Positions 1,610 through 6,569 are shown, counted from the stretch's first letter. The stretch is DNA of 14,449 nucleotides from a virus (IMGVR_UViG_2875713109_000007); one strand, 5' to 3'. The notes: generated from the sequence alone by a model not told the origin. A program made the numbers and translations.

Positions 1610-2278
1610 ATGGTGAAATTAATGAAAAAAAACACAGATGATGGGGCTAAAATTTACACACCACTTACCCTAAAGCTTTATGACTGGTGGGTTTTGGGAG
1701 TATCAAATCGGCTTGCATGGGGATGTCCTACAAAGGAACACCTTCTTCCACACTTTCTGGAACATTTAGGTAACAACCATCTGGATATTGGTGTTGGAAC
1801 TGGGTTTTACCTTACTCACGTACCTGAGAGTAGTCTGATATCTTTAATGGATTTGAACGAAGCTAGCCTGAACGCGGCATCTACAAGGGCTGGGGAATCA
1901 AAAATTAAACATAAAATTAACCATGATGTTTTTGAACCTTATCCCGCGGCGTTACATGGTCAATTTGATTCCATTTCCATGTTTTACCTTCTTCACTGCC
2001 TGCCTGGAAATATATCTACAAAAAGCTGTGTAATACGCAATGCGGCGCAGGCCTTAACTGACGATGGAACTCTATACGGAGCCACAATTCTTGGCGATGG
2101 AGTTGTGCACAATAGCTTCGGTCAAAAACTGATGCGCATTTACAATCAGAAAGGCATCTTTTCAAACACAAAAGATTCCGAAGAAGGCTTAACACATATA
2201 CTCTCAGAGCATTTCGAGAATGTTAAAACCAAGGTTCAAGGTACTGTAGTAATGTTTTCCGCTTCAGGGAAAAAATAG
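1610..2278 (+). CDS. ybcY: Class I SAM-dependent methyltransferase, 222 aa
   Basis: ATG at 1610, TAG at 2276-2278. Glycine-rich SAM-binding motif I (LDIGVGTGF) followed by an acidic residue motif (LMDLNE). Position between tfaX and the tail module matches DLP12 ybcY as I recall it. Confidence 0.75.
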   Translation: MVKLMKKNTDDGAKIYTPLTLKLYDWWVLGVSNRLAWGCPTKEHLLPHFLEHLGNNHLDIGVGTGFYLTHVPESSLISLMDLNEASLNAASTRAGESKIKHKINHDVFEPYPAALHGQFDSISMFYLLHCLPGNISTKSCVIRNAAQALTDDGTLYGATILGDGVVHNSFGQKLMRIYNQKGIFSNTKDSEEGLTHILSEHFENVKTKVQGTVVMFSASGKK

Positions 2279-2285
2279 CATCCAA

Positions 2286-2324
2286 CCGCAGCACGTTCTT
2301 GCATAAGGCGTGTCTGCGGTTTTT
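2286..2324 (+). terminator. Rho-independent terminator downstream of ybcY
   Basis: Stem CCGCAGCACG (2286-2295) pairs with CGTG-T-CTGCGG (2309-2319), followed by TTTTT (2320-2324). Confidence 0.6.
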
Positions 2325-2643
2325 CAACTATTCAGATACATCACTCCCATCACATTCATTCCTCCGCATCATAGGCATATAGGCTATATCACCTTGATAT
2401 TTTTCTTCTTCAGATAAAAACTGTTATCTATGTATACTTTTAAACCCAATCCGTGTAGAGTCTCTGCATAAGATAGTTTGCAGTTGCCACTTCAGCTTGC
2501 GCCATAAACCGCCTGATTTTTGCTGCCACCTGTTAGCATTCCTGTATACCTGAAACGACAATGTTTATCTACGAACTTTAAGAACCCCCAGGATAAAAAT
2601 TGTCAACTATATCATATATAACACATTACTAATTCGAGGCTAT

Positions 2644-2757
2644 ATGAACAGCATACTGATAATCACTTCGCTCCTTATCATATTCAGCATTTTTAGTCAT
2701 GCGCTAATAAAATTAGGGATTGGCATATCCAATAACCCAGACAAAACCGATGTATAA
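2644..2757 (+). CDS. Hypothetical 37-aa hydrophobic (single-TM-like) small protein
   Basis: ATG at 2644 preceded by GAGG (2636-2639). Translation [37 protein letters not shown] is a hydrophobic stretch of about 23 residues with a polar tail; TAA at 2755-2757. Too short for the ORF track, so no homology support. Confidence 0.35.
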
Positions 2758-2825
2758 GTCAACATATCCTGAATCAGACATACAATATCGCAATGAAAAT
2801 CAATAATATTTTAAGGAATATCTTC

Positions 2826-3059
2826 ATGAAATCAAAAGACACCCTAAAGTGGTTCCCTGCGCAGCTTCCTGAAGTAAGAATTATCCTAGGGGATGCTGTA
2901 GTGGAAGTAGCAAAACAGGGAAGACCTATCAATACCAGAACATTGCTTGATTACATTGAAGGAAACATAAAGAAAAAATCATGGCTGGATAACAAAGAAT
3001 TATTACAAACAGCGATATCAGTTCTTAAAGACAACCAAAATTTAAATGGTAAAATGTAA
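2826..3059 (+). CDS. Small hypothetical protein, 77 aa, possibly YdfK/YnaE-family (tentative)
   Basis: ATG at 2826 with AAGGA SD (2813-2817) at 8-nt spacing; the track's upstream start at 2793 lacks an SD. Lies immediately upstream of the Pin invertase on the same strand, as ydfK does relative to pinQ and ynaE to pinR in my recollection. Family assignment is from context and length, not verified sequence identity. Confidence 0.5.
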   Translation: MKSKDTLKWFPAQLPEVRIILGDAVVEVAKQGRPINTRTLLDYIEGNIKKKSWLDNKELLQTAISVLKDNQNLNGKM

Positions 3060-3375
3060 TATAATAAACTTACTTTTTTATCATTTTTCCACTTTAACAA
3101 CATTTTGCTCCACTTTTCCACGACCAAACAACTTGAAATCTGGTTAAAATAACACGCAACACTATTCTTCTTCCTTGAGTCCGCCCGGAACTCGAAAAAC
3201 AAACCGAGTTAAAGCCATTTTTCACAAAATCGATTTTGGGTCTCACCAAAATTACGGGGTTGCATACGCATTCGTTTATTTTCGAACGTGTACATACAAA
3301 TATGCACAAAAATAATCATAATTATTTTCTGAGATGCATTATGATATGAACACCAATTTCGTATAGAGTCTCACT

Positions 3376-3966
3376 ATGTCTCAAATTTTTGCTTACTGTC
3401 GGATATCAACGCTGGATCAGACCACCGAAAATCAACGCCGGGAAATCGAAAGTGCAGGTTTTAAAATCAAACCTCAGCAAATAATCGAAGAACACATTAG
3501 CGGCTCAGCAGCAACCAGTGAGCGTCCTGGTTTTAACCGGTTGCTTGCTCGCCTGAAATGTGGTGATCAATTGATTGTGACAAAACTGGATCGCCTTGGT
3601 TGTAATGCAATGGATATCAGGAAAACAGTGGAACAACTGACCGAAACAGGTATCAGAGTGCATTGCTTAGCATTGGGGGGCATTGACCTGACCAGTCCAA
3701 CAGGAAAAATGATGATGCAAGTAATTTCAGCAGTCGCTGAATTTGAACGAGACCTTTTACTTGAACGCACTCATTCCGGGATAGTAAGAGCCCGCGGCGC
3801 AGGGAAACGTTTTGGTCGACCACCTGTGTTAAATGAAGAACAGAAACAGGCGGTATTCGAACGAATTAAGTCAGGTGTAAGTATAAGTGCCATTGCCCGG
3901 GAATTCAAAACCTCGCGGCAAACCATTTTAAGAGCCAAAGCAAAACTTCAGACACCTGACATATAA
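3376..3966 (+). CDS. pin: Pin-family serine DNA invertase (PinQ/PinR-like), 196 aa
   Basis: ATG at 3376, TAA at 3964-3966. N-terminal serine-recombinase catalytic domain (YCRISTLDQ with the catalytic Ser; [18 protein letters not shown]) and C-terminal HTH ([20 protein letters not shown]). Convergent with a tfa/tail-fiber remnant, as in Qin/Rac. Confidence 0.85.
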
Positions 3967-4063: not shown

Positions 4064-4639
4064 CTACGGCAGTGCTGGCCATTCAATATCCTGTGCAGTT
4101 GACGTATCAACACGGTTCAGCAATACCCGATACTTTTTCCATGCTTCCAGCAACGAGATTTCTTCCTCCGTTGCAATTTCCAGATCTGCAGCATCCTGAA
4201 GCGGCGCAATATGCTCACTGGCTACCTGCATCAGGTTGTTTTTTGTTTCTTCCGCCTCCCGGATCCGGAACAGTTTTTCTGCTTCCGTATCCTTCACCCA
4301 GGCTGTGCCGTTCCACTTCTGAAACTCCCCTTCCGGCGATAACCAGGTAACATTTTTCGGTAACGGACCGAGTTCAGAAATAAATAACGCGTCGCCGGAA
4401 GCCACGTCATAAACCGTTTTACCCCGATGATCTTCAACGAGATGCCACGATGCCTCATCACTGTTGAAAACAGCCACAAAGCCAGCAGGAATATCTGGTG
4501 GTGCAATATCGGTACTGTTTGCTGGCAGACCTGTATGAGGCGGAATATATGCGTCACCTTCACCAATAAATTCATTAGTTCCGGCCAGCAGATTATAAAT
4601 TTTTATGGTCCGTGGTTGTTCACTCATTCTGAATGCCAT
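4064..4639 (-). CDS. tfa: Tail fiber assembly protein (Tfa), 191 aa
   Basis: ATG at 4639-4637 ([20 protein letters not shown]…), TAG at 4066-4064. Strongly resembles lambda/e14 Tfa as I recall it. Confidence 0.8.
4112..4221. repeat. Direct repeat copy 2 (tfa 3' region), paired with 1341-1450
   Basis: See copy 1. Confidence 0.8.
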
Positions 4640-4897: not shown

Positions 4898-5032
4898 AAC
4901 CCCACCTCGCAGACAAAGCGGGTGTAAATTGAGGGAATACAACGTATCGCAAAAAAGCAGAAACGTAACAGACTCGGAGTCAGTGAATAACTCAGGTATT
5001 GGGTTATCAGCTAATATCGAGACTCAAAAAAT

Positions 5033-5058
5033 GGAAAAACCCGCTCGACGGCGGGTTT
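5033..5058 (-). terminator. Putative rho-independent terminator, minus-strand orientation
   Basis: GC stem CCCGC (5040-5044) pairs with GCGGG (5051-5055), extended by A-T pairs. On the minus-strand RNA the stem is followed by UUUUUCC; on the plus strand only UUU follows. Confidence 0.45.
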
Positions 5059-5392
5059 AAGCTGTGTGACGAAGTAACCACTCTTAACAGCATAACCAAT
5101 TTTTTACGTACGTAAACCACAAAATGATATTTGCGAGAATGCTACCGAGTATTGAAAACACCACTACAAATACATAAGCAAATCTCAACAAATAACCAAC
5201 AAATAATTTCCAGTGTTATTTTTAGCCGATTTAAATTGAACCTTCAAATTACAGAGCACTTATAAATAACAGCCGTTAATATAAATTGGCTAATAGATTT
5301 ATTTTTATTCAGCCAAGATCCATGAATAGGATTCGATAGAAAAAAGTTCAGATAAAAATAGAGATCTACTTCACAAATCAAACGAGAAACCA

Positions 5393-5412
5393 AAACTTAC
5401 ATCTTGAAATAA
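5393..5412 (+). promoter_or_regulatory. OmpR-box-like motif upstream of the porin gene (tentative)
   Basis: ACTTACATCTTGAAAT resembles the ompC OmpR site TTTACATTTTGAAAC that I recall. It lies about 85 bp upstream of the nmpC ATG in an AT-rich leader. Confidence 0.25.
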
Positions 5413-5486
5413 TCACATTGATTAGATGAATATTTATCGCGCAGTGACATCATTTTTTAATAATAGTTCAAAAAAAAGGGCTCACG

Positions 5487-6569
5487 ATGAAAAAATTAAC
5501 AGTGGCAATTTCTGCTGTAGCTGCATCAGTACTGATGGCGATGTCTGCTCAGGCAGCTGAAATTTATAATAAAGACAGTAACAAGCTGGATCTATATGGG
5601 AAAGTTAATGCCAAGCACTACTTCTCCTCTAATGATGCAGATGATGGTGATACTACTTATGCCCGTCTTGGCTTCAAAGGTGAAACCCAAATCAACGATC
5701 AACTGACTGGTTTCGGTCAGTGGGAATATGAATTCAAAGGCAACCGCGCTGAATCTCAAGGCTCCTCCAAAGACAAAACCCGTCTTGCATTTGCAGGCCT
5801 GAAATTCGGGGACTACGGCTCAATCGATTACGGCCGTAACTACGGTGTAGCATATGACATCGGTGCGTGGACTGACGTTCTGCCAGAATTCGGTGGCGAT
5901 ACCTGGACCCAAACAGATGTGTTCATGACTGGTCGCACCACTGGTGTTGCAACTTATCGTAACAACGACTTCTTTGGTCTGGTTGATGGTCTGAACTTTG
6001 CTGCTCAGTATCAGGGTAAAAATGACCGCACTGACGTAACTGAAGCTAATGGTGATGGTTTCGGTTTCTCCACTACTTATGAGTATGAAGGATTCGGTGT
6101 AGGTGCAACCTATGCTAAATCTGACCGCACTAATAATCAGGTTATCTACGGTAACAACAGCCTGAATGCATCTGGTCAAAATGCTGAAGTATGGGCAGCT
6201 GGTCTGAAATATGATGCGAACAACATCTATCTGGCTACCACCTATTCTGAAACCCAGAACATGACTGTTTTTGGTAATAACCATATTGCCAACAAAGCAC
6301 AAAACTTCGAAGTAGTTGCACAATATCAGTTCGACTTCGGTCTGCGTCCGTCCGTTGCTTACCTGCAATCTAAAGGAAAAGACTTGGGTGCGTGGGGTGA
6401 TCAGGACCTGGTTGAATATATTGATGTAGGTGCAACCTATTACTTCAACAAAAATATGTCCACTTTTGTTGATTACAAAATCAACCTGATTGATAAGAGC
6501 GATTTCACGAAAGCATCTGGCGTTGCTACCGATGATATCGTTGCTGTAGGTATGGTTTACCAGTTCTAA
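5487..6569 (+). CDS. nmpC: Outer membrane general porin (OmpC/OmpF/NmpC family), 360 aa, intact
   Basis: ATG at 5487 with AAGGG SD; signal peptide [29 protein letters not shown]; porin hallmarks and C-terminal …VGMVYQF; TAA at 6567-6569. Uninterrupted, with no IS sequence. Confidence 0.9.

Follow-up and report, generated by a model that had tools for sequence, protein, structure and literature searches.

Positions 2279-3375 of a 14,449-nucleotide stretch of viral DNA (IMGVR_UViG_2875713109_000007, hereafter the window) carry the ynaM(ynfT)-ydfK gene pair of lambdoid prophages, as it is found in the Rac and Qin prophages of E. coli K-12. A preliminary description made from the sequence alone had noted here an unexplained cassette of two open reading frames (ORFs) of 37 and 77 codons, lying 68 nt apart between the terminator that follows a ybcY-like gene and the DNA invertase gene pin. 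Both ORFs lie where that description placed them, and both are real genes rather than chance ORFs. By analogy with the connector proteins YcgZ, YmgA and AriR, we tentatively propose that the pair may form a cold-induced, phage-carried two-part connector module that tunes host envelope and stress signaling.

The 37-aa peptide matches the Pfam family PF23676 (YnaM) along its entire length (residues 1-37 of 37) with 96.2 bits against a cut-off of 27, and the NCBIfam family NF041477 with 63.9 bits (cut-off 35). It is identical to K-12 YnaM of Rac and to YnfT, formerly YnfQ, of Qin, and it falls into PHROG family phrog_35882; the PHROG families of both products of the pair are of unknown function. 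Windows of 19 residues reach a hydropathy of 2.5, and the single-pass hydrophobic peptide of the preliminary description is genuine. It is neither 'unexplained' nor 'below annotation thresholds', as that description had it: YnaM and YnfQ were named in 2018 by VanOrsdel et al., who list this exact 37-aa sequence (PMC6001520), families for the peptide exist in Pfam, NCBIfam and PHROG, and the Prokaryotic Genome Annotation Pipeline (PGAP) annotates it. RefSeq labels under identical DNA read 'YnaM/YnfT family protein' and 'cold shock protein YdfK'. The copy in the window has the same 37-aa sequence as the K-12 copies and the same place upstream of ydfK/ynaE, within flanking DNA that is ~99% identical. 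It differs from them by its chromosomal site alone, a DLP12-type prophage near appY and a methyltransferase gene.

Translation has been demonstrated for the identical K-12 genes. YnaM and YnfQ carrying a sequential peptide affinity (SPA) tag were both detected by immunoblot in LB cultures at 37 °C, and both were positives in a tetracycline ribosome-profiling screen (PMC6001520). In the alignment, as we read it, every difference between the ynaM copies of the window, Qin and Rac is synonymous. The ratio of nonsynonymous to synonymous substitution rates (dN/dS) of ynaM is 0.05 against the copy of the type found in phage 2H10 and 0.09 against the Salmonella copy, within an overall range of 0.05-0.11; ydfK falls into the same range, with 0.05 and 0.08, respectively. 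ynaM is under purifying selection. Because its frame is conserved in homologous loci and its translation signal is published, the 37-aa ORF stands as a gene. The good Shine-Dalgarno sequences previously noted for both ORFs are likewise present, with GAGG 4 nt ahead of the ynaM ATG and AAGGA 8 nt upstream of the ydfK start.

The 77-aa product is 100% identical to K-12 YdfK (NP_416062.2 / WP_000836768.1) and one residue (K51T) away from YnaE, which bears out the earlier suggestion of a ydfK/ynaE-family gene. A precomputed match to the YdfK family PF27475 is found on every homologue (PHROG phrog_2718), and the family is a small one, with all its members in Enterobacterales or phages of these bacteria (94 clusters at 90% identity, 31 representatives at 50%). 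YdfK and YnaE have been seen intact after refrigeration by top-down mass spectrometry, at 8772.78 and 8745.75 Da (PMC5594050). We calculate 8772.80 Da for YdfK and 8745.75 Da for YnaE as 77-residue products with Met retained. The published masses are thus those of the 77-residue products, and ydfK therefore starts at 2826 and not at the 88-codon alternative at 2793.

Transcripts and proteins of ydfK/ynaE are described in the literature as strongly cold-induced. In published RNA-seq data, ynfT and ydfK are up together (5.7- and 5.3-fold) with cspB/G/I and deaD, and ynaM and ydfK are probably co-transcribed. YdfK, a basic protein (isoelectric point, pI, 9.6), is a cold-shock protein by its induction alone and lacks a CspA-type cold-shock domain: no Pfam match to this oligonucleotide-binding (OB) fold was obtained at E <= 0.1, and the structural model is all-helical. 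Regulation by Fur has also been reported for these genes. A 17-bit cluster of Fur sites, centered at +8 relative to the ydfK/ynaE start codon, is predicted by published information-theory scans, and both ydfK and ynaE are classed as Fur-activated from array data (PMC2189734).

The AlphaFold2 (AF2) model of YdfK consists of three helices, with a predicted local distance difference test score (pLDDT) of 80.6, and its best Foldseek match is 2oxl_A, with a template modeling (TM) score of 0.81. When YdfK was compared by hhalign with a profile of YcgZ/YmgA/AriR, the probability rose from 32% to 68% to 86% with deeper profiles, the last value lying below the usual 95% level. The best E-value was 5.4e-6 over 59 columns, with the common motif LG-AV-E(I/V)-K-GR-(I/L)(N/S), and the central segments can be aligned by eye as ILGDAVVEVAKQGRPINTRTLL in YdfK and TLGEIVTEILKDGRNLSRKSLC in YcgZ. 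Pfam and PDB sequence searches with YdfK gave nothing significant (2oxl at E 0.13 in a profile search of PDB sequences), no helix-turn-helix family was matched, and Foldseek against viral structures returned nothing useful. The model and the profile comparison suggest that YdfK is probably a remote homologue of YmgB/AriR, and not a member of PF10798.

The YcgZ/YmgA/AriR proteins (PF10798, 2oxl) resemble YdfK in size (78-90 aa), predicted three-helix fold and central motif, and induction at low temperature is common to both groups. YcgZ also shares a phenotype with YdfK: in a screen of ~40,000 clones of the ASKA overexpression library, expression of ytfK'-lacZ was lowered by cpdA, ydfK and ycgZ only (PMC8600398). 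The similarity is nevertheless detectable profile-to-profile alone, and YdfK is phage-borne and forms a separate family. The partners differ as well, since YdfK goes with a membrane peptide, whereas YcgZ, YmgA and AriR go with paralogues, in the ycgZ-ymgABC operon under BluR/BluF. In the literature that we searched, no paper links YdfK to the YcgZ/YmgA/AriR family. The products of ycgZ-ymgA-ariR are cold- and blue-light-induced connectors that activate the Rcs phosphorelay via the cytoplasmic side of RcsC/RcsD (PMC11451591), and YmgB binds SpoT, raising guanosine tetraphosphate (ppGpp) (PMC10704370).

If YdfK acts as these connectors do, it would bind a host signaling protein rather than nucleic acid, and precedent would point to RcsC/RcsD or a SpoT-type protein as the target. 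YnaM would be its dedicated partner. It has a single membrane helix, with a basic residue at what would be the cytoplasmic end, and its conserved acidic SNNPD tail probably lies on the cytoplasmic side. This tail might tether YdfK to the inner membrane or modulate YdfK at that site; alternatively, the tail might modulate a membrane sensor. In this way, the prophage would adjust host envelope and stress signaling at low temperature. A narrower version, in which a YmgB/AriR-like YdfK is recruited or controlled via the SNNPD tail of YnaM and rewires the Rcs phosphorelay or SpoT/ppGpp signaling in the cold, is one that we consider rather doubtful.

We scanned 94 sequences (93 loci and the window; 607 kb in six frames) for YnaM-like ORFs using relaxed tblastn, a motif and a hidden Markov model (HMM). 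The ORFs found are 37-39 aa long, most of them with a Shine-Dalgarno motif, and the strong HMM matches all lie beside a ydfK homologue on the same strand. They share an architecture in which one hydrophobic helix, usually followed by a basic residue, precedes (G/A/S)(I/V)SNNxD and an acidic end. Seven lineages beyond E. coli/Shigella carry the pair. The small ORF is upstream of the ydfK homologue in five of them, namely Salmonella prophages, the loci L084/L085 (YdfK 72% identical), the locus L086 (67%), Superficieibacter (55%) and Pantoea eucrina (60%), and where it is upstream a spacer of 22-80 nt separates the two genes. In the other two lineages, Raoultella and the locus L063, it lies downstream of the ydfK-like gene. 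A restriction of YnaM to Escherichia and Salmonella, which tblastn at E <= 1e-3 had indicated, was rejected, as the relaxed searches reach further lineages. The C-terminal motif of the peptide is kept across genera at 35-80% identity, and within YnaM conservation is highest in the polar SNNPD tail rather than in the hydrophobic helix. Since this tail is conserved and the gene order can be reversed, a shared function of the two products is favored over a mere leader ORF.

Some of the more distant YdfK homologues (55-64% identity; loci L007-L010, L014-L017 and L011-L012) adjoin ynfU-like zinc-ribbon genes, gnsA/B-like genes and a DUF892 gene, as well as a 2860-aa glucan-synthase-like gene of family GH94. 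Several of these neighbors are cold-shock-associated Qin genes in K-12. In Limnobaculum, the homologues adjoin a BON-domain gene within the lysis region of a prophage.

The position of ynaM invites another explanation, in which it is a regulatory upstream ORF whose translation, not its product, sets ydfK expression, for example by cold-dependent attenuation. ynaM lies within what was formerly the 5' leader of ydfK/ynaE, a region with reported short transcripts and Hfq binding, and the spacer to ydfK is short. According to passages quoting Raghavan et al. 2011, ynaE and ydfK give rise to prematurely terminated leader transcripts, which are recovered with Hfq by co-immunoprecipitation (PMC5089854, PMC4152368); because that work predates the annotation of ynaM, the reported leader RNAs may include ynaM message. 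However, the sequence of the peptide is itself under strong purifying selection, and its C-terminal motif persists across genera. In Raoultella and L063, moreover, the downstream place of the small ORF means that it cannot act as a leader there. We therefore regard a purely regulatory ORF as very unlikely, while a regulatory side effect of ynaM in E. coli is possible.

The preliminary description had raised a type I toxin, a holin-like peptide or a superinfection-exclusion factor. On this account YnaM would be a membrane-damaging peptide (holin/antiholin-like in one variant) whose expression an antisense RNA or the structure of the leader keeps silent. Like the type I toxin peptides Hok, Ldr, Ibs and TisB, YnaM is a short and very hydrophobic single helix preceded by a long leader, and those peptides too are often carried by prophages. 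A weak sigma-70-like site on the minus strand (TTGATT-16-TAAAAT, 9/12, at 2835-2808), recognized by its consensus match alone, points leftwards across ynaM and could yield an antisense transcript; it is the sole hint of one. Type I toxins, in contrast, have an antisense RNA gene, none of which was found here, and neither a PADLOC family nor an Rfam antisense or toxin-antitoxin RNA was matched. YnaM is conserved in its polar tail more than in its helix, and it is always beside a ydfK homologue and co-oriented with it, also when downstream, an arrangement that type I modules do not show. The tagged peptide is detected in LB at 37 °C. Half of all E. coli genomes contain the module, and a single genome can hold it at as many as three sites. 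We consider a role as a toxin, holin or exclusion factor highly improbable.

Several observations weigh against the connector module that we propose. The link of YdfK to Rcs, SpoT or any partner is drawn by analogy. The three-helix fold is a simple one, the AF2 model was built on 18 fairly similar sequences, the sequence identity between YdfK and YmgB is about 15-20%, and none of 18 YdfK-family members matches PF10798 (Pfam YmgB) at E <= 1. About 50 Enterobacter-type loci, in which YdfK is ~62% identical and often adjoins ynfU and the giant GH94 gene, have no YnaM-like small ORF nearby; YdfK can therefore work alone, and the peptide is not indispensable. Finally, YdfK was recovered in a pull-down with NudC/CsdA at 16 °C, which would fit an RNA-related role.

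This recovery, the induction by cold and the pI of 9.6 would all suit a nucleic-acid-binding cold-shock factor (an RNA chaperone, a degradosome accessory or a DNA-binding regulator) to which YnaM is functionally unrelated, and some database entries call YdfK a 'DNA-binding transcriptional regulator'. However, YdfK matches neither a cold-shock domain nor a helix-turn-helix, and its sole clear structural and profile match is YmgB/AriR. The pull-down with NudC/CsdA may reflect mere abundance at 16 °C, and the repeated linkage with YnaM-like peptides favors a shared function. We consider a nucleic-acid-binding factor with an unrelated YnaM unlikely.

The cassette, a module of 1.1 kb, is widespread. 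By megablast, 2279-3375 is present at >= 80% coverage in 2781 of 5426 complete E. coli genomes, at up to three places in a genome. In K-12, the gene order is ynfT-ydfK-pinQ-tfaQ-stfQ in Qin and ynaM-ynaE-pinR-tfaR-stfR in Rac. Homology between the window, Qin and Rac begins exactly at the hairpin upstream of the cassette and runs at ~99% identity through pin, and the ydfK-pin spacer is 100% identical in all three. The module is also carried by sequenced, mostly inducible lambdoid phages (2H10, PhiR63_1, Kati, Turner, Tritos and mEp460_ev081), in which it is flanked by int/att on one side, often with a dinI-like gene in between, and by pin-tfa-stf on the other. HK97 and mEp460 have the hairpin alone, with no cassette. 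In HK97 the hairpin lies between sib/attP and tfa; it directly precedes tfa, and the leader, ynaM, ydfK and pin therefore constitute an insertion at that point.

These comparisons show that the module is an inserted accessory gene, or 'moron', between a conserved hairpin and the tail-fiber genes. It resembles the lambdoid morons bor and lom in being an autonomous unit of the late/b region that is bounded by a terminator hairpin and expressed in the lysogen, and, like them, it is absent from otherwise similar phages (HK97, mEp460). The products are of another kind: those of bor and lom are outer-membrane proteins, whereas the module encodes a regulator-like protein of the cytoplasm and a very small peptide of the inner membrane.

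The cassette had also been suggested to be a conserved companion of pin. This holds for the Escherichia/Shigella-type copies, since pin adjoins the cassette in all ~16 such loci and phages, but it fails in Salmonella prophages and other genera: pin is absent beside ynaM-ydfK in the 6 Salmonella loci, and no pin homologue lies beside the ydfK homologues in ~57 loci of other Enterobacterales. Two Raoultella loci have a distant resolvase (37-38%) more than 1 kb upstream. pin is thus a neighbor and not a universal partner of ynaM-ydfK. In the Salmonella prophages, which have Mu-like tails, a four-gene block occupies the same accessory position without pin (L087/L088, 3143-4234; L005, 4437-5470). 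It consists of a divergent 70-aa YnaE paralogue, a 137-aa ORF, ynaM and ydfK, with Mu-like baseplate genes nearby.

No crossover site of the Gin/Hin type (AAACCNNGGTTT, <=2 mismatches) was found in 3060-3375, and such matches are no commoner than chance across the window. The longest inverted repeat (34 nt, 74% complementary; 3133-3166 / 5202-5235) brackets pin, tfa and the stf remnant, and its arms are loosely alike as TTNAAATCNGNTAAAATAACAC. Owing to the truncation of stf, the second arm falls into the promoter region of an nmpC-like porin gene, and the repeat is probably due to chance.

The hairpin that delimits the module on its left has the stem CCGCAGCACG / CGTG-CTGCGG and the loop UUCUUGCAUAAGG, followed by T5. 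Its folding energy is -20.7 kcal/mol, with a z-score of -5.0 relative to shuffled sequences. In L084, two stem positions are changed in a compensatory way and the loop is kept, with the T-run absent. The hairpin is probably a terminator that insulates the module from upstream transcription. It recurs in lambdoid phages with the conserved loop UUCUUGCAUACGG, other copies being located at 119-155 of L084 and 2506-2543 of L093. Its minus strand resembles the 3' hairpin of the Rfam family CssrB, a Shigella small RNA, with 28.5 bits against a cut-off of 76; the identification of the region as CssrB was rejected, as this sub-threshold match amounts essentially to the shared hairpin.

Between the hairpin and ynaM, the preliminary description had found no convincing ORF in 2325-2640 and had suggested a promoter or a small RNA. 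Our analysis agrees: this is non-coding leader and promoter DNA for which short Hfq-bound leader transcripts have been published. The candidate sigma-70 promoter listed in Table 1, from which transcription is predicted to start near 2445, is kept in the 2H10-type leader, which is 86% identical. In a genomic SELEX (systematic evolution of ligands by exponential enrichment) study, sigma-70 RNA polymerase bound upstream of ydfK/ynaE and also between ydfK/ynaE and pinQ/pinR (PMC3946193), and the ynaM-ydfK pair thus has an RNA polymerase binding region of its own. The same study gives TGTACA-16-AATAAT for pinQ/pinR and flags the pinQ (Qin) entry for H-NS (PMC3946193).

The leader is ~86% conserved among E. 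coli types, and no conservation was seen in Salmonella or L084/L086 beyond ~60 nt ahead of ynaM. No Rfam family reached its gathering score in the region, and the covariance model of the cspA thermosensor (RF01766) had no match at E <= 5 in 2200-3450. The leader as a whole folds weakly better than shuffled sequences (z -1.85). Because it exists in two main haplotypes, with too little variation for a covariation test, we propose no leader structure.

Table 1. Features of the cassette and its flanks in the window
Feature	Positions	Strand	Basis or remark
S-adenosylmethionine (SAM) methyltransferase gene (class I, ybcY-like)	1610-2278	+	ORF and family match
Hairpin and T5	2284-2326 (hairpin 2284-2321)	+	Left edge of the shared module; folding and homology
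Candidate sigma-70 promoter TTCAGA-18-TATACT for a ynaM-ydfK transcript	2409-2438	+	Consensus match alone
Non-coding 5' leader, ~200 nt	2445-2643	+	No ORF of note, no Rfam family
ynaM/ynfT, 37-aa single-pass membrane peptide with conserved C-terminal tail	2644-2757	+	Family models, K-12 identity
ynaM-ydfK spacer, 68 nt, holding the ydfK Shine-Dalgarno sequence AAGGA (2813-2817)	2758-2825	+	
ydfK, 77-aa, three-helix, cold-shock-induced protein of the YnaE family PF27475 with a YmgB/AriR-like predicted fold	2826-3059	+	
ydfK-pin spacer, 316 nt, with a predicted pin promoter TGTACA-16-AATAAT at 3289-3316	3060-3375	+	
pin-type serine DNA invertase gene (PinQ/PinR-like; Resolvase and HTH_7)	3376-3966	+	

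The window corresponds to a decayed DLP12-type prophage, in which the cassette persists but the lysis genes, the packaging genes and most of the tail genes have been lost. Its prophage genes follow in the order appY, tfa fragment, methyltransferase, cassette, pin, tfa and truncated stf, and to the right of the latter lie the nmpC-like porin gene, ybcK/L/M and intD-type genes. stf is reduced to its C-terminal part (~4942-5487), which abuts the promoter region of the porin gene (5487-6569). No genome in the collection searched matches the whole stretch in one piece. A full-length match to the Rfam family IS009 (220.9 bits, cut-off 117) was found on the minus strand at 4098-4296, within the 3' part of the tail-fiber-assembly gene downstream of pin.

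A direct repeat of 154 nt (82% identical) links 1307-1460 and 4078-4231. On the left, the repeat is a fragment of a tfa pseudogene that precedes the methyltransferase gene and is oriented like the intact tfa to the right of pin. Recombination between the two copies could delete the block from the methyltransferase gene through ynaM, ydfK and pin, and a deletion of this kind may be the origin of the shorter DLP12 in K-12.

Both genes of the cassette have already been named, annotated and experimentally detected in K-12, and nothing new is hidden at these coordinates. ydfK/ynaE are among the most strongly cold-induced transcripts, and the pair is present in about half of E. coli genomes. Two leads emerge from our analysis: the structural and profile link of YdfK to YcgZ/YmgA/AriR, with its matching overexpression phenotype, and the comparative evidence for YnaM as a functional partner of YdfK. 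If the narrower version of the connector model given above holds true, these two uncharacterized genes would gain a function, and the connector family would extend to mobile elements.

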